Below, piece by piece: positions 805 to 40,361 of a stretch of DNA of 41,819 bases (the first letter of the stretch is position 1; each line of letters opens with the position of its first letter). The notes under the pieces were generated by a model, which worked only from the letters and a program-made list of their open reading frames with translations, did no database searches and was not told the DNA's origin. The DNA is from a virus. Lineage: Duplodnaviria > Heunggongvirae > Uroviricota > Caudoviricetes. Location of the stretch: positions 1 through 41,819 of the IMG/VR virus record IMGVR_UViG_2579779007_000006, one strand, 5' to 3'. A program made the translations under genes and the position numbers.

Positions 805-1537
805 ATACTCCCTCCTACATCTCCGGCTAGATTGTAACTTATATAGTGTATCTTAGATCATCTCACTATCTAAGTAAGATATCATGGGGTATCGGAAGTT
901 CAACTCCTCGCATCAGTCAATAATTTAAATAAAAACAGACGGTTATGTCTTTATTTATTGTTTCCTCTAACTTCCTCCCCGTTGATTAACACACGCGCCA
1001 TAGTCAACTAAATCGGTTGCGACCGGGAGAAGCGGTAGCCAAAATTTTGCCACGATACGAGTGCTTGCCATCCCCCCTCAACTTCCGCTTTTGGCACATA
1101 GCAGCCCTAGAGACAGTGGCGTAAAGTCATGGAGGGTCGGTGGCAGGAGATGCAAATCCTCTCATACAAAAATACGTAAAATCAATAACGGCTAGAAATC
1201 ATTCAATACTCGCACTATCTAACATTTACCAGCCAACCGCAGCACGTCTTGCATACGACCTGTCTGCGGTTTCAATCACCTCTCACCACCAGTCCCATCA
1301 ATAATAATTAAACAGCGCCTAAACAAAATAAATAACAACAAGTCAACAACCTCGACAGGATGCCGATGGGATGATGAAGAGATAAGAAAGAATAACTAGT
1401 AAAGCCCTAAAACGTCAGCGTTCAGACGCGTTTTTTACTTAACCGGTAACAAATACGTTGTATCATAGCAACATAAAATGATTGTTCTAAATCAGATTAA
1501 CTCCTCACTTTTGTACAATGTCGCTTACAGGTATACC

Positions 1538-3427
1538 ATGAAATCCGAGACGCTAACTGTCCAACAACTTTTTCAAGACCGCCGACAATACTGCGTTCCA
1601 TTCTATCAACGTGCCTATGTATGGACTCAGCGAAACCAATGGTCAGCTCTACTGGAGGATATCCTAGAGAAAGCACAATCCCGGCTCTCGGGTACAAAAC
1701 CAACTCCCCATTTCCTTGGTGCAGTGGTACTGGAACCTCAACCAAAAAAAGGATTATTAGGTGTAGATTCCATACATATTATTGATGGTCAGCAACGATT
1801 GACCACTCTTCAATATGTTCTGGCATCCATCCGATTAGCATTACGTGCGACAGATCTTTCCAACTTAGAGCCTCTCATTTCGTCTTGCCTGAAAAACTCA
1901 AACGAAGACACAATGCGAAATAAAGAAGTAGAGCGCTTCAAACTGTGGCCAACTTTTCGGGATCAAACTCATTTTATTCAAAGTTTTAATGTTGAAAATA
2001 TTGACGATATCCGGAATGTATTCTCTGATAGTTTCACGCAGCATGGTACGTTGCGTAAGCATTTTAATCACCCGCCATCACTAGAAGCATTATGTTTTTT
2101 TACTGAAGCCTTTATAAAGTGGATTAAAATAGAAAATCACTCACCACGAGAAAATGCTGTAGCATTAATTGAGGCTGTCTTGACGGATCTGAAACTAGTA
2201 AGCATATTTCTCGAGGCTGAAGATGACGCTCAAATAATTTTTGAAACATTAAATGGCAGAGGTGCGGAACTTCATGCCACAGATCTTATTCGCAATTATA
2301 TTTTTATGTGCGCTGAACATGAAAATATTAATGCTGTTGAATTATATGAGAATGAGTGGAAGATCTTTGAAGATACGTACTGGTCAGAAAGACAACGTCG
2401 TGGTCGTATTAATAAACCACGCATGGAGTGGCTAGTGCATGCGACATTGCAATCAGAAAGGCAACGTGAAATCGATCTGTCTCGTCTTTACAATGAGTAT
2501 CGTGATTATGTAAGTAAGGACTTGCCTTCACAACGAGCAGATCTGCAAGTAAAGCGCCTCAAACAATATGCATCACAATATAAAGAATTGGTTGGTGGTT
2601 TTGGCACAACCCCCATCTCACACTTTGGACATCGCATCGCAGCCTATGATGTGACGACACTTTATCCGCTTGCTTTGTTCATTTCGATAGCTAACATCGC
2701 CGATGATGAGAAAGCAGCCATGTATAATGATCTTGTCTCCTACGTAGTACGAAGAGCCGTATGTGGCCTGACGCCAAAGAATTACAACAATGTATTTATG
2801 AATGTATTGCGGCACTTGTCTAAAACGGAAATTTCCAGTGTTGAGTTACGTAATATCCTCAATAGCTTAAATGGCGAAGCCTCACGTTGGCCTGGGGACT
2901 CAGAATTTCTCAACGCTTGCATCAATGCTCCACTTTATCCTGGCAGGCTCGACGCACCGAAAATGCGCTCAATGTTAACGGAACTTGAAAGAGAACTTTG
3001 TCGCCAAGTGAAGACAGAGAAGCCTGATGTTCCAAATCTTTCTAACCTCGATATCGATCATCTTATGCCTCAAAGTTGGTATTCCTGTTGGCCTCTCGAA
3101 AATGGTCATATGGTGACAAATTCAGATGCTACGGTATTGAACCAAATTGTTCTGTCTGGAACCGATCTTACCCCTGAACAGCTACTGGTAAGGAAACGGC
3201 AACAAGCGATAGCTACGTTGGGAAATCTAACTTTGCTTAACCTTAGCGTAAACCGTTCTGTTCAGAATGCTGTATTTCTGAAAAAACGTGATGCTCTCAT
3301 CGTCCACACCAATCTACGACTGAACATTCCACTTATAGTTAAGGATAAATGGGATGAGGATGAAATCCTGGAGCGGGGTAAAAAGTTGGGGGAAATTGCA
3401 TTGAAAGTATGGCCAAAACACGATTAA
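1538..3427 (+). CDS. GmrSD-like type IV restriction endonuclease candidate (DUF262 N-terminal, DUF1524/HNH-like C-terminal)
   Basis: N-terminal FYQRAYVW and IIDGQQRLTT motifs are typical of DUF262; C-terminal DIDHLMPQSW is a His-Me finger-like motif. Start chosen at MKSETLTVQQLF; the longest ORF begins at 1478. Confidence 0.7.
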   Translation: MKSETLTVQQLFQDRRQYCVPFYQRAYVWTQRNQWSALLEDILEKAQSRLSGTKPTPHFLGAVVLEPQPKKGLLGVDSIHIIDGQQRLTTLQYVLASIRLALRATDLSNLEPLISSCLKNSNEDTMRNKEVERFKLWPTFRDQTHFIQSFNVENIDDIRNVFSDSFTQHGTLRKHFNHPPSLEALCFFTEAFIKWIKIENHSPRENAVALIEAVLTDLKLVSIFLEAEDDAQIIFETLNGRGAELHATDLIRNYIFMCAEHENINAVELYENEWKIFEDTYWSERQRRGRINKPRMEWLVHATLQSERQREIDLSRLYNEYRDYVSKDLPSQRADLQVKRLKQYASQYKELVGGFGTTPISHFGHRIAAYDVTTLYPLALFISIANIADDEKAAMYNDLVSYVVRRAVCGLTPKNYNNVFMNVLRHLSKTEISSVELRNILNSLNGEASRWPGDSEFLNACINAPLYPGRLDAPKMRSMLTELERELCRQVKTEKPDVPNLSNLDIDHLMPQSWYSCWPLENGHMVTNSDATVLNQIVLSGTDLTPEQLLVRKRQQAIATLGNLTLLNLSVNRSVQNAVFLKKRDALIVHTNLRLNIPLIVKDKWDEDEILERGKKLGEIALKVWPKHD

Positions 3428-29783: not shown

Positions 29784-30106
29784 ACTTTCAGGCCCCTCTC
29801 ATGTAACCAGTGGGTTGCACGCAGCCTTGCGTTTTCCTCACCGGCAAGCAGTGAGCGGATAATCCCGACCGCCTCGCTGTCGTCGTCCTTCACCGCGGTA
29901 TGAAGCGTGATGCCCCGGGCCACGCCACGCTTTATCGTGATGACGCCTTTTTTCTCCAGTGCGCGAAGATGCTCCACCGCTGCATTCACTGAACGGTATC
30001 CCAGCATGGTTGCCACCTCCTGATTGGTTGGCGGGAAGCCACGTTCTTTCTGATAAGAAATCAGCATATCCAGCACCTGCTGCTGGCATTGAGTTAACGT
30101 CGTCAT
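29780..30106 (-). CDS. LexA N-terminal-like winged-helix DNA-binding protein
   Basis: 108 aa (QVLDMLISYQKERGFPPTNQEVATMLGYRSVNAAVEHLRALEKKGVI) resembles the LexA DNA-binding domain without a peptidase domain. Confidence 0.6.
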   Translation of the reverse strand: MTTLTQCQQQVLDMLISYQKERGFPPTNQEVATMLGYRSVNAAVEHLRALEKKGVITIKRGVARGITLHTAVKDDDSEAVGIIRSLLAGEENARLRATHWLHERGLKV

Positions 30107-30756
30107 GCCGCCATCTCCCTGACCAGTTTTTCTGCCTGCTGGCGAACCTGCGCCAGAAAGGCCTCACCACATGCCTCAAGTTCATCGCGCCCGATGTAGC
30201 TGATTGCCGGTCCCTTCCAGGTCTTGTCGAAAACAGCAATAGCACCAGCGAAGAAAGCGCCTGTCGGCACCTGCTTCTCATCCTTCGGGATAAACCAGGC
30301 AGGCAGTTCAAAACCAATACGCCCGCGAATAAAAGCAATATGATCTGCATCTTCCGGCCACCACACTTCGCTGGTGGCAGCTTTGATCAGGAAAACATAG
30401 CGCCCGCCTTTATCACGCATGGCACTGGCATGCTTCATGATGTAACGCATGCCGGTAATGTATTGCCCCTCATGCTGACTGGCGCGGCTGTATGGGGGAT
30501 TACCAAAGGCAGCACCTTTAAGCTCCGCAAGGCGTTCTGACCAGTCATGCGCCAGCGCGTTGTCTTCCGCCGTGTAATACGCAGCACATTTGGCGTTATC
30601 ACCGTCAGTGAACAGATCCAGAACAAACGGGCCAAACAGGGTGTTAATTCCCCAGAAAATGTTGTCCGGCGTGCGCCACTGATCGCCCACTTCCTTCAGT
30701 TCATGGGCTGGTTTGTTCCGCAGTTCCGCCAGCGCCTGGCAATATTTATTACTCAT
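30103..30756 (-). CDS. phage N6-adenine DNA methyltransferase (Dam-like)
   Basis: Contains the NPPY catalytic motif (FGNPPYSR); start taken at MSNKYCQ, sharing one base with the stop of the upstream gene (TAATG). Confidence 0.8.
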   Translation of the reverse strand: MSNKYCQALAELRNKPAHELKEVGDQWRTPDNIFWGINTLFGPFVLDLFTDGDNAKCAAYYTAEDNALAHDWSERLAELKGAAFGNPPYSRASQHEGQYITGMRYIMKHASAMRDKGGRYVFLIKAATSEVWWPEDADHIAFIRGRIGFELPAWFIPKDEKQVPTGAFFAGAIAVFDKTWKGPAISYIGRDELEACGEAFLAQVRQQAEKLVREMAA

Positions 30757-31250
30757 TAAGCCCCCACGTAATTCCCTGAGAGATACCACTCTTCACCTGA
30801 TGCAGCCTGCTTACTGCTTTTCCGTAAACACCGTTCACGACGCGCCAGAAAATTGTTTCGTTCTGGCTGGGAGTGGCTTTCACGGAATGCCGCCATCCAC
30901 ACGGTTGCAGCACGACGGTATAAGCCCCTGGACTCCAGTTCTTCAGCCTGGCGGGTCAGGCACAAAATCACCTGGGGATCGTTAGTGCCGACATAGAAAT
31001 TGCGCACAGGTCTGGTTTCTCGAACTGGTTGTGGTTCCGGTTCCTGCGCTCTCTCAGTCAGGCGCGGGAAATGTCTGCGTGTATCTCCTTCACAACGGTG
31101 AGCCACACGCCCACTCTGACGTAACTTGCTTGCTGACTGCAGAACGCGCTGCCGTGAGTAACCTGCAAAAGCATCCGCAATGTCTCCGGAAGTACATCCC
31201 GGATGGGCTTCAATGAATTTCTGAACTTCATTCAAAAGACTCATTATCAC
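30756..31250 (-). CDS. hypothetical protein in the helicase-loader position
   Basis: 164 aa directly downstream of the O-like gene; C-terminal region (RRAATVWMAAFRESH) may resemble PerC/ANR-type regulators (uncertain). Confidence 0.5.
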   Translation of the reverse strand: MIMSLLNEVQKFIEAHPGCTSGDIADAFAGYSRQRVLQSASKLRQSGRVAHRCEGDTRRHFPRLTERAQEPEPQPVRETRPVRNFYVGTNDPQVILCLTRQAEELESRGLYRRAATVWMAAFRESHSQPERNNFLARRERCLRKSSKQAASGEEWYLSGNYVGA

Positions 31251-32188
31251 CCCCTGAATCCTGCCGGGATCTGGCTGTAGTCCACGTTGTCGTAACTGGA
31301 TTTGAAGTACGGGTCTTCGCGTTTTTCGGTGTACGTGCTAACGGACGGTGATAAGCGCAGGGAAAGCTCATCCCATTTTTCCCGCAACTTCGACGGGCTG
31401 AGCACGTTACGGCACCAGAACGGATCGCGGCTGACGCGGCTGTACATCTCGCAGATTTGTTTGTGAGTACGACCATCCTGCACACACATCAGGCGAATTT
31501 CGTTTGCCCAGGCTGTCCAGTTCGGTTCTTTGGGACGAACCACCTCGCCGTCACATTCGGCGGCTTGCTCGTACAGGGCGATGATTTTTTTCCAGAGCCA
31601 CTGTGCGCAGGTCAAATCATCCTGCGTTCCCCACTGGCGCTTTTTAGGGCTGAATACAACCGCATCAGGATGGCGAGTTAAAAAATCCTGTTCATCCGTC
31701 TGCGTGTCCGGTTGCGAAGCGTCCGGACGAGAAGGTTTTTTATCTGACGGATCATGTTTTGATTTTACTGACGGATCCCCGCCAGATTCTGACGGGTGAA
31801 AACCCGCTTTTTTGCCAGATTTCGACGCATCAAATTTTGACGGGTCAGATTTTGATGCGTCAGATTTTGACGGGTCAGAATCTGACAGTTGAGAAAATGC
31901 CGCTGCCTGAAGCTTCGCAACGTTAAGCTGATAAACATTCGACGCATTGCGGTTACCCTGGCGACGCGCCTTACGCGTTAACCAGCCTTCTGCTTCCAGC
32001 CGTGCGATAGCCGTTCTGACGGTACTCATTCCCGCGCCAATCTGGCGGGCAATGGTTTCAATTGATGGCCAGCACACACCTTCGTCATTACTGAAATCAG
32101 CCAGGCGGGCCATAATTGCCACGCTGGATAATTTCATGCCTGATGCAGCGCAACCATCCCATACATAGCCGGTTAATTTAGTGCTCAT
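31247..32188 (-). CDS. replication initiator, lambda O-like (HTH N-terminus, internal repeat linker)
   Basis: 313 aa; N-terminal winged-helix region; central Ser/Asp/Lys-rich repeats encoded by the iterons; position after cro/cII-like genes. Confidence 0.7.
   Translation of the reverse strand: MSTKLTGYVWDGCAASGMKLSSVAIMARLADFSNDEGVCWPSIETIARQIGAGMSTVRTAIARLEAEGWLTRKARRQGNRNASNVYQLNVAKLQAAAFSQLSDSDPSKSDASKSDPSKFDASKSGKKAGFHPSESGGDPSVKSKHDPSDKKPSRPDASQPDTQTDEQDFLTRHPDAVVFSPKKRQWGTQDDLTCAQWLWKKIIALYEQAAECDGEVVRPKEPNWTAWANEIRLMCVQDGRTHKQICEMYSRVSRDPFWCRNVLSPSKLREKWDELSLRLSPSVSTYTEKREDPYFKSSYDNVDYSQIPAGFRG
31740..31890. repeat. tandem iteron-like repeats inside the O-like gene (putative replication origin)
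   Basis: At least seven direct copies of a roughly 15-bp unit (cagattttgacgggt and variants). Confidence 0.6.
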
Positions 32189-32197
32189 GACCGACCT

Positions 32198-32536
32198 CTA
32201 TTTCCCTGAATTTACGACGAAACTGTTCGAGCAGGCTGAAGCACTCATGCTCATAACCTTCGCGGAGGTAGATAACCCGTTGTGTTTCCGGCTCCCAACG
32301 AATGACTCTGACGGGCACTCCGTAGTGATCTTTGAACCAGCGGTTAACTTGTCGCAAAGGACTGTCTCCTTCTGCCGGTTGAAATCACCCACAGCCCACT
32401 CTGCAAAGCTGTGGGTTACAATTTCCCTGTCACCTGGTACATTTACTGCATAGCAATACTCCACCTTCGCTTTTCCACCCGGTACAGGAAGCGCAATCAG
32501 TTGCGAGCGACGGTAGTGTGTTGTTAAACTGTTCAT
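32198..32536 (-). CDS. hypothetical protein
   Basis: 112-aa ORF whose ATG overlaps the stop of the upstream gene (ATGA) and ends 10 nt before the O-like start; a plus-strand ORF (32181..32453) occupies the same DNA and cannot be excluded. Confidence 0.35.
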
Positions 32537-33084
32537 GCGTTAGTTTCTCCACAGTCACGACACGCCACGGCGCCCGGAGCTGCACACTCGCGGGCGTCAT
32601 TACTTTCTGAAATGCAAAAAATTTTGTAGACCAGTGCTGCATGCTCCTGCAGCTTCGAAATTGAGAGGTACAGCTCGTCGTTAATTGCTGTCTTCTCATG
32701 CGGTTCCACTACACCGTCTTCAATTGCTGAACGAATCTGTTTTGAATAACTGCCGATCTGTTCAATGACTTCCAGCAGGCGCTGGTTAATATCGGCGTTG
32801 TCCACATCCTCGACGTCAGGAAGAGACACAAAGACGCCATTTGCAGACTGCGCCACAGCGTCAGCAATGAAGTGAGTTCCACCAGCACGTTGCAAAATCA
32901 TTGCCCATCCCAGCGGGAAAATCTGATCGCCATCGGCACGAAGGCGGTTAAATAATGCGTTCTCTGTTACATCCAGCCAGTCAGCTGCTTCAGCGTAACC
33001 CCCCGGCAACGCTGCGATAGTTTTTCTGACAGCTTTCACGTACCACTTAGGCTGTTTTTCTACTTTCCAGTGATGCTTACCCAC
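32533..33084 (-). CDS. YdaT-like / cII-position regulatory protein
   Basis: Start assigned to the GTG preceded by AAGGAG (the longer ORF to 33189 would overlap cro by 83 nt); lies directly downstream of the Cro/YdaS-like gene. Confidence 0.5.
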
Positions 33085-33106
33085 GGCTATCTCCTTAAAA
33101 CTGTGG

Positions 33107-33355
33107 TTACTTTTCATCTGATGAATCTTTAATCTTTTGAAAAATATCTGGACGTAATTTTTCTTTTGATATGCCAGTGGTCTTTTCAATGAATATCGAG
33201 AGCTTTGCAGGGGGACGCTTTTCTCTGTTCAACCAGTTCCAGACATGTTGTTGCTTTACTAAATGACCGCTGCTGGCTGTGAGCTTCCGAGCCAATTCTG
33301 ATTGACCACCAGCCAGAGCGATTGCCTCCGATAAGGCTAATTGCTCAGGTGTCAT
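33107..33355 (-). CDS. Cro/YdaS-like HTH regulator
   Basis: 82 aa with an HTH (GGQSELARKLTASSGHLVKQ), divergent from the CI gene across an operator region. Confidence 0.75.
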   Translation of the reverse strand: MTPEQLALSEAIALAGGQSELARKLTASSGHLVKQQHVWNWLNREKRPPAKLSIFIEKTTGISKEKLRPDIFQKIKDSSDEK

Positions 33356-33490
33356 AGCTTTCTCCTTTTTAGGTAGTTAAGTTGTTACGAGTTGCAAGAA
33401 TACAACATTAACAACTTTTATCACAACTTTTAGGTGTTGGAAAGCTAAAACATAAAGTTGTAACCTCATCAAAAAAGAGAGGGATATGTT
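33356..33490. promoter_or_regulatory. OR/PR-PRM-like divergent operator-promoter region
   Basis: Intergenic region between divergent repressor genes carrying repeated AAGTTGT/ACAACTT half-sites. Confidence 0.6.
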
Positions 33491-34177
33491 GTGAAAACAC
33501 TGGCAGAACGATTAAAGATAGGTAGAGAGAAAGCTGGCATGAGCCAAGCTCAACTAGCTGAAAAAATTGGACTTTCACAACAATCTGTAGCCAAAATAGA
33601 GAATGGCGAAACTCTACAACCGCGCAAAATTAAAGAAATTGCAAAAGTTTTAGGTGTATCACAAAAGTGGTTACAACTTGGTATTGAAGACAACGCATCC
33701 ATACCTGATCTTGTTGTAAAAGAAGCAGAAAGCACCGCATTAGACCCCGATATTTTCGTAAACATTCCTGTTTTAGATGTCGAGTTATCGGCAGGTAACG
33801 GATGTCTGGCTGAAATAGTTGAATCAGCTATTGACTGGTTTCCGTTAAGAAGAGCAGATTTGAGAAAATCTGGCGTATGTGCATCTAATGCCAAGATCGT
33901 AAAAATATGGGGGAACAGTTTATTACCGGTTCTCAATAATGGAGATCTTGTTGCCGTTGATATTTCTCAAACCGTTCCTATTCGTGATGGCGATCTTTAT
34001 GCCGTACGAGATGGTGTATTGCTAAGGGTTAAAATACTTATCAACTTACCTGACGGTGGCTTGATTCTTAGAAGCTTCAACAAAGATGAGTACCCAGATG
34101 AAATACTCACCTTTGAAGATAGACGAGCCAGAATTCATGTTATAGGTAGGGTATTCTGGTCATCGCGAACTTGGTAA
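33491..34177 (+). CDS. CI-like prophage repressor (HTH plus S24 peptidase domain)
   Basis: N-terminal HTH (MSQAQLAEKIGLSQQSVAKIENGE) and a C-terminal LexA/S24-like domain (SLLPVLNNGDLVAVD...RVFWSSR). Confidence 0.85.
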   Translation: MKTLAERLKIGREKAGMSQAQLAEKIGLSQQSVAKIENGETLQPRKIKEIAKVLGVSQKWLQLGIEDNASIPDLVVKEAESTALDPDIFVNIPVLDVELSAGNGCLAEIVESAIDWFPLRRADLRKSGVCASNAKIVKIWGNSLLPVLNNGDLVAVDISQTVPIRDGDLYAVRDGVLLRVKILINLPDGGLILRSFNKDEYPDEILTFEDRRARIHVIGRVFWSSRTW

Positions 34178-35050
34178 TGCATCGAAAAGCATTTCTTCAG
34201 AAATAATTTTAAGTTTTGCACCATTATCATCCCTATAAGATATAGCCTTTTCGATCTTCCTTCCGTGACTTGAGAATTTCCAATCACGGGAGGAAAGCGT
34301 CCCAATTACTAAAAAATCCAACTTTTGAGTAATTCCACTACTGATGTTCCCACCAGCATTTTTAATCAAATTTTCAACTACGGCTCTCTTTCCTGCAACA
34401 AAAGTGCCTGTAAGACAATAGGTTTTACCCTCTAACTCTATCGAAGCCCCTACATCAATAGGCAGCCTGGTCGCCAAACCATCCACCACCCCACTTTCCA
34501 AGTCACATCCTGTGAAGTCTACTAATGCCTTATGTAGAGTTAAACTCTCATCTTCAGTAATAACACCATCTTTAAGAATTTCCTTTACAAGTGCATAAAG
34601 TTTTTTTCCTGGGTAGTTGTTCTTCAAAGCTCCATTTTGCTCAAGCCACCAATTAAGATATCTTATTTCTTCTTGAGTTAAGTTCCGATCAGCAATTAAT
34701 CCTTTACATAGTCCATTAAGTAAATGGACATCTACATCCTTGGAGTAAAAATCAATTTCAGGGATATCAAGAATTTCCCTCTGTATTTGGAGAAGGCTAT
34801 TTTTAAGGTCATCACGTTCTTCTGATGTGATTATTCCATCCGCAAGAATATCCGACACCCGTGCTGATAGACTTTTTATAACTCCATTATTGATAATCTG
34901 CTTTGCTTCAAGTAACCATGTATCTAAGTAAAGAACCTCCTCTTCACGGACAACTCCATCTGCAATGATTCCATCAATGATGCTAATCAAGTTAGCAAAT
35001 AACTTGTCCCGGTTCTGTGTGTAATTAAAAGCGTAAAGCGCGTCTTCCAT
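34160..35050 (-). CDS. hypothetical protein: four TerB-like DGxxxxEE helical repeats plus C-terminal BRCT-like domain
   Basis: Start placed at MEDALYAF (AGGAGG ribosome-binding site 5 nt upstream). Four roughly 45-aa repeats begin DG[VI][VI]xxEE; the C-terminus (GKTYCLTGTF...AGGNISSGITQKLDFLVIG...GAKLKIISEEMLFDAL) is BRCT-like. Confidence 0.65.
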   Translation of the reverse strand: MEDALYAFNYTQNRDKLFANLISIIDGIIADGVVREEEVLYLDTWLLEAKQIINNGVIKSLSARVSDILADGIITSEERDDLKNSLLQIQREILDIPEIDFYSKDVDVHLLNGLCKGLIADRNLTQEEIRYLNWWLEQNGALKNNYPGKKLYALVKEILKDGVITEDESLTLHKALVDFTGCDLESGVVDGLATRLPIDVGASIELEGKTYCLTGTFVAGKRAVVENLIKNAGGNISSGITQKLDFLVIGTLSSRDWKFSSHGRKIEKAISYRDDNGAKLKIISEEMLFDALPSSR

Positions 35051-35094
35051 ACAACCTCCTTTTTTTGATAATCCTTGCACTCCTTGGCTACTCG

Positions 35095-38971: not shown

Positions 38972-39321
38972 TGGAGCCATACAGCCTCACACTCGATGAG
39001 GCCTGTCATTTTCTCAAGATATCCAGACCGACTGCCATTAACTGGATACGCACAGGGCGTCTTCAGGCAACACGCAAAGATCCCACTAAGAATAAATCTC
39101 CTTACCTCACAACACGACAAGCCTGCATTGCGGCTCTTCAGTCTCCGCTGCATACTGTCCAGGTGAGCGCGGGTGATGGCATAACAGAGGAAAGAAAATG
39201 TCACTCTTCCGCAGAGGTGAAATATGGTACGCCAGTTTCACATTGCCGAACGGTAAAAGATTTAAACAGTCTCTTGGAACAAAGGACAAAAGGCAGGCGA
39301 CAGAACTCCATGACAAGCTAA
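38971..39321 (+). CDS. xis: excisionase
   Basis: 116 aa ([36 protein letters not shown]) closely matching P22 Xis as recalled; 3' end overlaps int. Confidence 0.85.
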
Positions 39322-40361
39322 AGGCTGAAGCATGGCGGGTCAGCAAACTTGGTGAAATACCTGATATAACGTTCGAGGAAGCGTGTGTCAGGTGGCTTGA
39401 AGAGAAAGCACATAAAAAATCACTGGACGATGACAAAAGCCGGATCGGATTCTGGCTTCAACATTTCGCAGGAATGCAACTAAGAGACATTACTGAATCA
39501 AAAATTTATTCAGCAATGCAGAAAATGACGAACCGGCGTCATGAGGAAAACTGGAAACTCAGGGCAGAAGCATGCAGAAAAAAAGGGAAACCTGTTCCAG
39601 AATACACGCCAAAACCAGCGTCCGTTGCAACGAAGGCTACGCATCTTTCATTTATAAAGGCCCTACTAAGAGCCGCAGAGCGTGAATGGAAAATGCTGGA
39701 TAAGGCACCAATTATTAAAGTGCCTCAACCAAAGAATAAACGGATCCGCTGGCTGGAGCCCCATGAAGCACAAAGGCTGATTGATGAATGTCCGGAGCCA
39801 TTAAAGTCTGTTGTTGAATTTGCACTGGCAACAGGCTTAAGACGCTCGAACATCATCAACCTTGAATGGCAACAAATAGATATGCAGCGCCGGGTGGCAT
39901 GGATAAACCCGGAAGAGAGTAAATCAAACCGCGCAATTGGCGTTGCGCTGAATGATACTGCATGTCGCGTATTGAAAAAACAAATCGGGAATCATCACCG
40001 TTGGGTATTTGTGTACAAGGAAAGCTGTACCAAACCAGACGGAACGAAAGCGCCAACAGTAAGGAAGATGCGGTATGACGCAAACACAGCCTGGAAAGCG
40101 GCGCTGAGACGGGCTGGTATTGATGATTTCAGATTTCACGACTTGAGACACACCTGGGCAAGTTGGCTGGTTCAAGCCGGAGTCCCGTTGTCAGTTTTAC
40201 AGGAAATGGGAGGCTGGGAGTCTATCGAAATGGTTCGTCGATATGCTCACCTTGCACCTAATCACCTTACCGAACACGCACGGCAAATAGACTCGATCCT
40301 GAACCCATCGGTCCCAAATTTGTCCCAGTCAAAAAATAAGGAAGGTACTAATGATGTGTAA
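39198..40361 (+). CDS. int: tyrosine integrase, P22 Int-like
   Basis: 387 aa beginning [47 protein letters not shown] with the catalytic R...HDLRHTWAS...Y region, ending 14 nt from the tRNA 3' end. Confidence 0.95.

Follow-up and report, generated by a model that had tools for sequence, protein, structure and literature searches.

The window analysed here, the whole 41,819-nt stretch, is an SfII/SfIV-like lambdoid prophage, ~98% identical to both phages in nucleotide sequence. As in SfII and SfIV, the initiator gene is followed by the PerC-like gene, Dam, a LexA-like gene and RusA (Table 1). Because these isolated, infective phages carry the same module, the reading as a defective prophage was rejected. 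The prophage family is very common in enterobacteria: clustering at 90% identity gives 2,377 protein clusters, of which several contain thousands of members. The initiator protein is identical (100%) to a protein of phage vB_EcoM-689R6 and 98.7% identical to that of SfIV, and is listed as a hypothetical protein in the SfII genome announcement. A Dam-type methyltransferase is located after the replication genes in most relatives, and the DUF4222 gene occupies the equivalent place in eight loci (L013, L014, L099, L101, L102, L103, L105, L108). Scanning 30500-33600 for promoters and terminators gave none exceeding the shuffled background.

Table 1. Genes and sequence features of the initiator region, in window coordinates.
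Feature	Coordinates	Strand	Evidence or remarks
Dam-type N6-adenine methyltransferase gene	30103..30756	-	Pfam Dam 9.8e-46; next in operon after PerC-like gene
PerC-like gene, 162 aa, YfdN-like	30756..31244	-	N-terminal winged helix and PerC domain; Pfam, PHROG
Replication initiator gene, 313 aa	31247..32188	-	ORF; Pfam HTH_36 4.3e-11; PHROG 391 'replication initiation O-like' 1e-135
Disordered C-terminal tail, aa 281-313	31250..31348	-	pLDDT below 66; last nine residues SQIPAGFRG at 31250..31276
Initiator tail peptide			EDPYFKSSYDNVDYSQIPAGFRG
Lambda-O-type C-terminal domain, aa 171-280	31349..31678	-	tblastn to lambda O
Probable origin extent, codons 100-170	31679..31891		nucleotide-level constraint within gene
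Two GATCCGTCAG half-sites	31777..31768 and 31753..31744		flank AT-rich 18-mer GTAAAATCAAAACATGAT
Sixth iteron CCGTCAGAATCTGGC	31781..31795		18-bp gap from tandem block
Five tandem in-frame 15-bp iterons	31814..31888 (read on minus strand 31888..31814)		CTGTCAGATTCTGAC, CCGTCAAAATCTGAC, GCATCAAAATCTGAC, CCGTCAAAATTTGAT, GCGTCGAAATCTGGC
N-terminal winged-helix DNA-binding domain, aa 1-95	31904..32188	-	HTH_36, GntR, weak DnaD_N and RP-C matches at aa 21-89 (Pfam)
Small DUF4222 gene	32178..32357	-	Pfam DUF4222 3.6e-17; directly upstream of initiator

From N- to C-terminus, the initiator consists of a winged-helix domain, an iteron-encoding linker, a lambda-O-type C-domain and a DnaT-like tail. 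It is a hybrid, in which an HTH_36 N-domain is combined with a lambda-O-type C-domain and a disordered tail. The gene had originally been described as O-like, which holds for the C-domain (residues 166-277 share 39% identity with that of lambda O; tblastn, lambda nt 39196-39495, E 9e-18) but not for the HTH_36 N-domain, since the tblastn alignment is restricted to residues 166-277 and the N-terminal half of lambda O finds no match in the initiator. By tblastn the C-domain could further be aligned with phi80 gene 15 and with Bacillus replisome organizers, and PHROGs 277 and 9773, both 'O-like', match the C-terminal region. The family of this domain counts 2,667 representatives. Pfam assigned no family at E ≤1 to the isolated C-terminal half, and a sequence search of the PDB with the initiator returned weak MarR-type matches to the winged helix and none to the C-domain. 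In an AlphaFold2 model of residues 166-313 as a single chain, the C-domain folds into a β-hairpin and five helices (pLDDT about 80-94), for which a Foldseek search of the PDB gave no match below E 1.9. Foldseek gives no support for equating the whole of this domain with a DnaD-like fold or with the C-terminal domain found in DnaT, and hhalign aligns the tail only. The N-terminal winged helix is presumed to be the iteron reader.

The iterons are positioned between the initiator's DNA-binding and C-terminal domains. Six full 15-mers are found between 31781 and 31888 (codons 101-136 of 313), accompanied by degenerate copies; the original prediction of at least seven direct repeats of ~15 bp inside the gene is reached only when the latter are counted. 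The iteron core is TCAAAATCTGA, and each unit contains a GTCA-N5-TGAC dyad. Tandem Repeats Finder reports a period of 15 with 4.3 copies (81% matches, score 86), and a second repeat detection recovered a five-copy family with 15-bp spacing and dyad symmetry inside the units; the inverted-repeat pairs are 13 nt long and 92% complementary. With up to two mismatches, the 11-nt core has seven matches in the initiator gene. Allowing three mismatches at most, the 14-mer CCGTCAAAATCTGA is found 10 times in the 41.8-kb window, where 3.9 occurrences are expected, and 8 of the 10 are within 31779-31888. As predicted, the repeats encode a Ser/Asp/Lys-rich linker, with the peptide SDSDPSKSDASKSDPSKFDASKSG.

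Next to the iterons, two GATC sites at 31750 and 31774 are 24 bp apart, compared to a window average of 3.7 per kb, an enrichment that is suggestive only. The region 31735-31780 (46 bp) is 61% A+T, with a maximum of 75% over 20 bp, and constitutes a weak AT-rich element. The segment 31744..31777 is a candidate for the unwinding or Dam-sensitive part of the origin. No DnaA boxes were found near the iterons, and a DnaA-assisted, plasmid-like origin is therefore unlikely.

The iteron core is kept in phase in relatives from six genera. The five-iteron block is in phase in the Klebsiella, Citrobacter, Yersinia, Pantoea and phiP27 relatives, and the TCAGAATCTGG copy (the sixth iteron) occurs at the matching offset in most relatives. 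In P0104 and P0114, relatives whose N-domain has diverged, the window core is replaced by TCAAATTTTGA or TCAAATATTGA, and the half-site/GATC segment is kept even in relatives with the other iteron type. Compared with nine relatives, the iteron and GATC segments (codons 100-152) show a synonymous-codon identity of 0.68-0.97, with 0.75-0.93 in the half-site/GATC segment. This identity becomes more variable over codons 153-170 (0.2-1.0, few codons) and outside the origin amounts to 0.37-0.52 in the N-domain and, for relatives sharing the C-domain, 0.41-0.51 there. Amino-acid identity in the iteron/GATC segments is no higher than in the flanking domains. Absence of the repeats from functional relatives had been named beforehand as contrary evidence; they are present in the viable phages SfII, SfIV and phiNP.

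These data bear on whether the repeats could simply encode a slippage-prone, low-complexity linker with no role in cis, the origin being located elsewhere. The repeats are in frame, a flexible Ser/Asp/Lys linker is plausible, and iteron copy number differs by 5-codon steps among close relatives, as slippage would produce. However, conservation of synonymous sites is much stronger within the repeats than in the flanks, a difference that the amino acids do not show. Each unit invariably uses TCA and TCT for its two Ser codons, every unit is a dyad and the core switches together with the DNA-binding domain. Moreover, the search of the window revealed no second cluster comparable to this one. A purely coding role is thus very improbable. 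Because of the in-phase conservation, the covariation with the N-domain and the constraint at the DNA level, the interpretation of 31679-31891 as the origin of the SfII-type lambdoid prophage, inside the linker-coding part of the initiator gene, is well supported. The clustering of the repeats, well in excess of chance, and the 5-codon steps in copy number among close relatives point the same way. The predicted resemblance to lambda is borne out: the site occupies the place equivalent to that in gene O, its nucleotides are conserved beyond the needs of the protein and they covary with the N-domain. As an origin, the feature is an ordinary lambda-style origin inside an initiator gene.

The gene downstream of the initiator had been described as encoding a 164-aa unknown. 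The open reading frame is present but probably begins with the ATG at 31244, as in the SfII annotation, rather than with the GTG at 31250, giving 162 aa, and the product belongs to the PerC family. The PerC domain covers residues 98-149 (Pfam 4.4e-9; score 36.9 bits, cutoff 22.6), and further matches include a weak MarR-like winged helix and weak ANR and BilQ hits. PHROG 1324 (4e-78) and PHROG 2608 are both annotated 'transcriptional activator', and the protein is probably a transcription regulator rather than a helicase loader. The prediction that no helicase loader is recognisable here stands: searches of the 162-aa protein against Pfam, NCBIfam and PHROG gave no match to lambda P, DnaC, DnaB or a Walker ATPase, and neither the window nor complete SfII yielded homologues of lambda P (PF06992), DnaC or DnaB. 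The same three were found within 4 kb of the initiator in none of 80 close IMG/VR relatives, a set collected by C-domain search at ≥97% identity throughout and not a diverse census. The module is initiator-only ('solo'): its origin is internal to the initiator gene, and neither the module nor the rest of the phage has a gene for a helicase or loader.

Helicase loading could nevertheless depend on an unrecognised, non-homologous loader nearby, such as the PerC-like protein, the DUF4222 protein or another early gene. Non-homologous loaders beside lambda-O-like genes are known in Vibrio phages (PMC11087808), several early ORFs of the window have no known function, and the PerC-like gene sits in the lambda P position, tied to the initiator tail by a common mosaic block. 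But this gene is missing after the 72%-identical Klebsiella initiators, where Dam is directly next, and unrelated genes follow other GFR-tailed initiators. In addition, DUF4222 is found equally in modules possessing lambda P, and the PerC match exceeds the Pfam threshold. A hidden loader is accordingly improbable.

The way in which the host helicase is recruited was called unclear in the original prediction. The lack of a loader stands, but a clue is present in the DnaT-type C-terminal tail of the initiator. Its end, SQIPAGFRG, is identical at 8 of 9 positions to SQIPPGFRG of E. coli DnaT (BLASTP), both at the extreme C-terminus, the common motif being D-x-SQIP-x-GFRG. Alignment of the initiator family with DnaT by hhalign covers the last 34 columns (E 6e-6), and neither hhalign nor Foldseek linked the initiator C-domain to DnaT beyond the tail. 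The DnaT DNA-binding domain (PF17948), which DnaT itself matches at 3.7e-21, has no match in the initiator. The DnaT tail is near-invariant in >100 Enterobacteriaceae clusters, and dnaT is directly upstream of dnaC in E. coli. The GFR motif is common to E. coli DnaT and phage initiators of at least five C-terminal domain types. In the window, DNA homology to SfV/mEp460/Stx2c phages begins at ~31322, within the tail.

The class of tail was compared with the neighbouring loader gene in 26 replication modules, 8 Trp-rich-tailed and 18 GFR-tailed, counted without correction for phylogeny. A PF06992 lambda-P gene comes next after all eight Trp-rich-tailed initiators (lambda O, Erwinia 59, P0042, P0066, Hafnia Meifeng, P0065, P0100 and P0114) and after none of the 18 GFR-tailed ones. 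Of the GFR-tailed initiators, six have a DnaC-like gene after them (P0104, Rac YdaU, Gifsy-1, POCJ13, 666R9 and SPN3UB) and the other 12 are solo, with no adjoining loader gene. The DnaC-like protein of P0104 shares 47% identity with E. coli DnaC over its full length. Against a reading of the tail as partner determinant, phiP27 L17 has DnaC-like and DnaB-like genes downstream, yet no GFR tail. The co-occurrence of tail and next gene could also partly reflect linkage, as both are physically adjacent.

The tail might instead mimic the contact of DnaT with PriA or PriB, so that, at the same origin, DnaB would be loaded via the full PriA-PriB restart primosome. Besides the tail common to the initiator and DnaT, this possibility can draw on the known direct partners of DnaT, namely PriA via the C-terminal domain and PriB via the linker, and on DnaT residues 154-179, which have no defined function in the structures examined. 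Yet the published contacts with PriA and PriB use the DnaT C-terminal domain core and linker, both missing from the initiator, and tail class tracks the type of adjoining loader (lambda P or DnaC-like), pointing to the loader as partner. Recruitment through PriA or PriB appears unlikely on balance. A structural paper of 2026 (PMC13377028) states that it is not known how the DnaT preprimosome recruits DnaB/DnaC, and suggests the DnaT N-domain, not the tail, as a possible recruiter.

The reading preferred here combines an origin at 31679-31891 with tail-mediated recruitment of host DnaB-DnaC in a phage that encodes no loader, and is given a probability of about 0.6. The initiator, a product of the early-right operon, would bind the six 15-bp-spaced GTCA-N5-TGAC iterons as dimers via its winged-helix N-domain, and the adjoining GATC-containing, mildly AT-rich stretch would then open. 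No loader is encoded by the phage. The lambda-O-type C-domain bears a tail, predicted to be disordered, that ends in the motif of the host restart protein DnaT; this tail would dock host DnaB-DnaC at the origin, replacing the lambda O-P handshake. The downstream PerC-like gene would be a regulator outside the replication machinery. We infer the binding of the initiator to the iterons, the melting site and, above all, DnaC or DnaB-DnaC as the partner of the tail.

A broader proposal, tentative and put at slightly below even odds, is that D-x-x-(I/V)P-x-GFR(G/S/T) may be a portable docking motif for a DnaC-type loader or for DnaB-DnaC. The last 15-30 residues of the initiator would then act as a partner code (Trp-rich for lambda P, GFR for DnaC), solo initiators would present a DnaT-like tail to the host loader, and the motif would also supply the missing link between the DnaT preprimosome and DnaB-DnaC in replication restart. 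The comparison suggests that the last few residues of the initiator, also found on host DnaT, determine how loaderless phages obtain the host helicase. If the tail is indeed the DnaC contact, tail class would serve as a quick predictor of the loader on which a phage replicon depends, with a bearing on both helicase capture by solo phages and recruitment of DnaB-DnaC by DnaT. The origin and the solo-initiator layout are of an already known kind, whereas the tail-to-loader correlation may be new. Since no description of the iterons or the initiator tail was found in the SfII and SfIV papers examined, annotation of the origin is useful in itself; nor was a replication assay for an SfII-type module found in the literature examined.

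In lambda, dyad iterons also occur in the initiator gene between the DNA-binding and C-terminal domains, the C-domain is homologous, and in both cases the initiator gene comes after the cro and cII analogues in the early-right operon. However, the N-domain in the window is of HTH_36 type and not that of lambda O, six 15-bp iterons at a 15-bp phase replace four annotated 18-bp iterons, and the AT-rich flank is far less pronounced. The window lacks a P gene, and the tail ends in SQIPAGFRG where lambda O ends in LDLTNTDWIYGVDL.

Iteron plasmids (pSC101 RepA, R6K π, RK2 TrfA) use one element-encoded initiator, tandem iterons and host DnaB and DnaC, and the pSC101, R6K and RK2 origins also use DnaA boxes. 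The window resembles them in its single initiator, which would act on tandem iterons, and in its proposed reliance on host DnaB/DnaC. It differs in having no DnaA boxes near the origin, an unrelated initiator fold and an origin inside the initiator coding sequence.

Like the initiator of the window, those of the Rac YdaU-YdaV, Gifsy-1 O-DnaC and POCJ13 gp16-gp17 modules end in a DnaT-like tail. These modules, however, have their own DnaC-like loader directly downstream, absent in the window, and the N- and C-domains of their initiators belong to different types. The E. coli DnaT-DnaC pair shares the extreme C-terminal motif as well as the gene arrangement, dnaT preceding dnaC as GFR-tailed initiators precede DnaC-like genes, and DnaT is an adaptor that marks the site of DnaB loading, as proposed for the initiator. 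In contrast to DnaT, the window initiator has neither the DnaT N-domain nor the Pfam DnaT DNA-binding domain, so that the tail alone aligns, and it would be targeted by sequence-specific iteron binding, whereas DnaT is targeted by PriA and PriB. SfV/SfII/SfIV-type modules were reportedly called initiator-solo by Weigel and Seitz in FEMS Microbiol Rev in 2006. The window is one such initiator-only module, with no substantive difference from the others.

The region shares 97.7-98.7% nucleotide identity with the Shigella phages SfII and SfIV and with several induced E. coli phages, and its gene order is that of complete SfII: cI, a cro-like gene, a cII-like gene (Phage_CP76), small ORFs and the initiator, followed by a 162-aa gene, Dam, a LexA-like gene, RusA, KilA-N, DUF968/HNH and Q. 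The integrase adjoins a host gene of the aldehyde-dehydrogenase family, and the window therefore holds an SfII-like lambdoid prophage. Its sequence is in essence a known phage sequence; the initiator of vB_EcoM-689R6 is 100% identical to that of the window. In most relatives, regardless of loader type, the gene directly upstream of the initiator encodes a DUF4222 protein; here the DUF4222 ORF overlaps SfII_40 (named as in the SfII annotation) out of frame. Each of the two ORFs has a family match (Pfam DUF4222; PHROGs 1343 and 1170); either one of them is possibly a spurious annotation, or they may be linked by a frameshift. A GmrSD-type restriction endonuclease near one window end and a BRCT-domain protein beside the cI repressor are candidate defence or moron functions carried by the prophage.

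Coordinates of the replication module and of other features of the window
Feature	Position	Strand	Details
Initiator ORF	31247..32188	-	313 aa; holds in its middle the repeats originally placed at 31740-31890
Five contiguous in-frame 15-mers	31888..31814	coding strand	codons 101-125; CTGTCAGATTCTGAC, CCGTCAAAATCTGAC, GCATCAAAATCTGAC, CCGTCAAAATTTGAT, GCGTCGAAATCTGGC
Sixth iteron copy	31795..31781	coding strand	CCGTCAGAATCTGGC; 18-bp gap separates it from the five-unit block
Two GATCCGTCAG half-sites flanking an AT-rich 18-mer	31744..31777		3' of the sixth iteron on the coding strand
Nucleotide-constrained stretch of initiator gene	~31679-31891
Mosaic joint inside initiator gene	~31322
162-aa gene	30756..31244	-	likely start ATG at 31244, as in SfII
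Dam-type methyltransferase gene	30103..30756	-
DUF4222 ORF	32178..32357	-	59 aa
SfII_40 ORF	32198..32536	-	112 aa
BRCT-domain protein	34160..35080	-	306 aa
Integrase	39198..40361
GmrSD-type endonuclease	1478..3427	+

The initiator is a hybrid protein. Pfam assigns residues 21-89 to HTH_36 and gives weaker matches to GntR, DnaD_N and RP-C; no match to the N-terminal half of lambda O was found. Residues 166-277 share 39% identity with the lambda O C-terminal domain (lambda nt 39196-39495, E 9e-18), and phi80 gene 15 and Bacillus replisome organizers are further matches of this segment. AlphaFold2 models residues 166-313 as a beta-hairpin and five helices (pLDDT ~80-94) followed by a low-confidence tail. 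Neither sequence search nor, for this model, fold search returned a solved relative. The family comprises 2,377 clusters at 90% identity, a single E. coli cluster holding 5,414 sequences.

The original prediction of an iteron array inside this gene is borne out by the tandem 15-mers, by repeat searches and by 14-mer clustering. Tandem Repeats Finder gives a period of 15 and 4.3 copies, a repeat search recovers the 15-bp family, every unit of which is a dyad GTCA-N5-TGAC, and a 14-mer consensus (≤3 mismatches) matches 10 times in the 41.8-kb window against 3.9 expected, with 8 of the 10 inside the 110 bp of the array. The AT-rich segment flanking the iterons reaches only 61% A+T over 46 bp, so the melting site is placed at 31744-31777 tentatively. 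No DnaA box was found near the origin. The conserved half-sites contain two GATC sites at a distance of 24 bp, and in this prophage and most of its relatives the replication genes are followed by a Dam-type gene, which hints that origin methylation may be relevant; GATC enrichment at the origin is weak (3.7 GATC per kb across the window).

An 11-nt core, TCAAAATCTGA, recurs with 15-bp phasing at the equivalent position in relatives from Klebsiella, Citrobacter (phiNP), Yersinia (YeP3), Pantoea and metagenomic contigs and in phage phiP27, independently of the C-terminal domain type of the carrier protein. Two relatives' initiators with a clearly diverged N-domain, P0104 and P0114, have the same architecture with different cores (CCCTCAAATTTTGAC and GGATCAAATATTGAT); such covariation is what a binding site and the domain that reads it should show. 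Synonymous constraint was scored by aligning the codons of the window gene with those of nine relatives and taking, at conserved residues, the share of codons that are identical. This share reaches 0.68-0.97 across the iteron and GATC segments, compared with 0.37-0.52 for the N-domain and 0.41-0.51 for the C-domain (relatives sharing it). In the same alignments, amino-acid identity of the linker is not above that of its flanks. High codon identity without higher amino-acid identity means that selection acts on nucleotides. The repeats encode the peptide SDSDPSKSDASKSDPSKFDASKSG; a purely protein-level role for them is unlikely. Iteron copy number changes by five-codon steps (303, 313, 318 and 323 aa in proteins otherwise ≥90% identical), and deletion derivatives have 282-287 aa. 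In lambda, the annotated iterons sit at the equivalent position in gene O. From this conservation, covariation, synonymous constraint, stepwise copy number and lambda-like position we conclude, on sequence grounds, that the array region is the phage replication origin. Five otherwise near-identical initiators (P0015, P0016, P0018, P0020, P0034; 274-288 aa) lack most or all iterons because of in-frame inter-repeat deletions and possibly belong to origin-defective cryptic prophages.

The downstream protein had been predicted to be neither lambda P nor DnaC-like, and this holds: profile search places Pfam PerC above threshold at residues 98-149 (4.4e-9), gives weak MarR/BilQ-type winged-helix matches in the N-terminal 70 residues, and finds nothing resembling lambda P, DnaC or DnaB. 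PHROGs labels the family transcriptional activator, and the K-12 homologue is annotated YfdN. The gene is dispensable for the initiator family: 72%-identical Klebsiella initiators have a Dam gene directly next, the phiNP initiator is followed by methyltransferases, and a ParB-like gene, a KAP NTPase or unknown small ORFs come after others. Pfam and PHROG scans find no loader or helicase among the other early ORFs of the window (integrase, excisionase-like HTH, DUF2303, BRCT, KilA-N, DUF968, Q and unknowns), complete SfII has no gene annotated as either, and a lambda P, DnaC or DnaB homologue occurs within 4 kb in 0 of 80 close IMG/VR relatives. The claim that no loader is recognisable is thus correct, and an unrecognised one encoded by the phage, perhaps among these unknowns, is a less likely explanation. 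The layout is an initiator-only arrangement, for which the name 'initiator-solo' reportedly comes from Weigel and Seitz (2006).

The initiator ends in ...DNVDYSQIPAGFRG and E. coli DnaT (MG1655) in ...SEPDSQIPPGFRG, with 8 of 9 residues identical at the extreme C-terminus of both. More than 100 enterobacterial DnaT clusters show hardly any variation in the DnaT tail, (R/K)RD-x-N-x-x-SEPD-x-x-IP-x-GFRG. When the profile of the initiator family is compared with that of DnaT, the alignment covers the last 34 columns exactly (E 6e-6, probability 85%) and no others. Some family members are nearer to DnaT (VNHISEPDTEIPPGFRG vs VNTVSEPDSQIPPGFRG in DnaT). The core C-domain terminates in a conserved LSPxKLR(E/D)KW helix, beyond which the tails diverge into GFR(G/S/T), two Trp-rich classes, HWNSxEGWxxVL and D(L/F)xNTDWxxG (the latter being lambda O's own ending), and many other endings. 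C-domains of at least five types carry the GFR tail: lambda-O, SfV/POCJ13, Phg_2220_C (phiNP), YdaU/Gifsy and a complete DnaT C-terminal domain (SPN1S). At the mosaic joint, homology to SfV/mEp460/Stx2c phages starts ~24 codons before the stop and extends into the PerC-like and Dam genes; Stx2c-converting phages and mEp460 have a different initiator. The tail therefore moves as a module, exchanged with downstream DNA. The 271-aa replication protein of Salmonella phage SPN1S (L111:1787-2602) joins a YdaU-like N-terminal part to a complete DnaT C-terminal domain and tail (FTKRAALWGV...HHDQWQQKLARS...EPDSEIPPGFRG), with no loader gene after it; the DnaT C-terminal half thus circulates as a phage initiator module. 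Databases annotate some GFR-tailed phage proteins as 'primosomal protein I', and a DnaT C-terminal motif is described in a domesticated O-like protein (Brezellec et al., PMC5509034).

Across 26 modules in which the gene next to the initiator was scored, tail class follows loader type. All 8 Trp-rich tails (lambda, Erwinia 59, P0042, P0066, Hafnia Meifeng, P0065, P0100, P0114) have a lambda-P gene (PF06992) next, with no DnaC-like or loader-less case, whereas none of the 18 GFR tails does. Six of these have a DnaC-like gene (P0104, Rac YdaU-YdaV, Gifsy-1, POCJ13, vB_EcoS-666R9, SPN3UB), the P0104 neighbour showing 47% full-length identity to E. coli DnaC, and 12 have no loader next (the window with SfII and SfIV, SfV-type mEp460 and WGPS2, Klebsiella, phiNP, P0081, P0091, P0098, P0093, SPN1S, Kp ST11phi3.2, HannyBb, Tritos). 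A naive Fisher test (8/8 vs 0/18) gives ~6e-7, but since the cases are phylogenetically dependent and tail and next gene are physically linked, the correlation is an indication and not proof. It is consistent with the position of dnaT directly upstream of dnaC in MG1655, with the spread of the GFR tail over different C-domain types and with locus L106 (P0093), which has the gene order of L015 (initiator, then DUF1627 etc.) minus the DnaC-like gene; the phage DnaC copy looks dispensable in the L106/L015/L016 lineage. phiP27 L17 has DnaC-like and DnaB-like genes and no GFR tail, so not all DnaC-like systems need this tail. In Vibrio phage K73 (L010:3500-3931), a lambda-O-like gene with a different, acidic tail (...DDSEGDPQFRF) is followed by an overlapping 143-aa ORF that has no Pfam match and possibly belongs to the Vibrio phage loaders reported recently (VdhL; PMC11087808).

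The analysis shows the anatomy and constraint of the origin, the lack of a loader encoded by the phage, a tail of DnaT type and its correlation with loader type. In the proposed mechanism, initiator dimers would bind the dyad iterons, the segment beside them would open, and the disordered tail would capture the host DnaB-DnaC complex, replacing the lambda O-P contact. The tail-DnaC link is ranked as a hypothesis because DnaB/DnaC recruitment by the DnaT preprimosome is stated to be unknown, with the DnaT N-domain tentatively indicated (PMC13377028), and because DnaT residues 154-179 were unmodelled in crystal work (PMC4132743); no stated function of the DnaT tail was found in the literature. 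A DnaT-type tail might instead contact PriA or PriB and bring the whole restart primosome, the main rival to capture of DnaB-DnaC, to which the pairing of tail class with loader type points.

No description of an origin in the initiator was found in the SfII and SfIV papers, nor a statement of the tail-class-to-loader-type correlation in the literature. An origin inside the initiator gene and a module lacking a loader are both of known kinds; the element that may be new is the link between tail class and loader type, together with a function for the DnaT tail.
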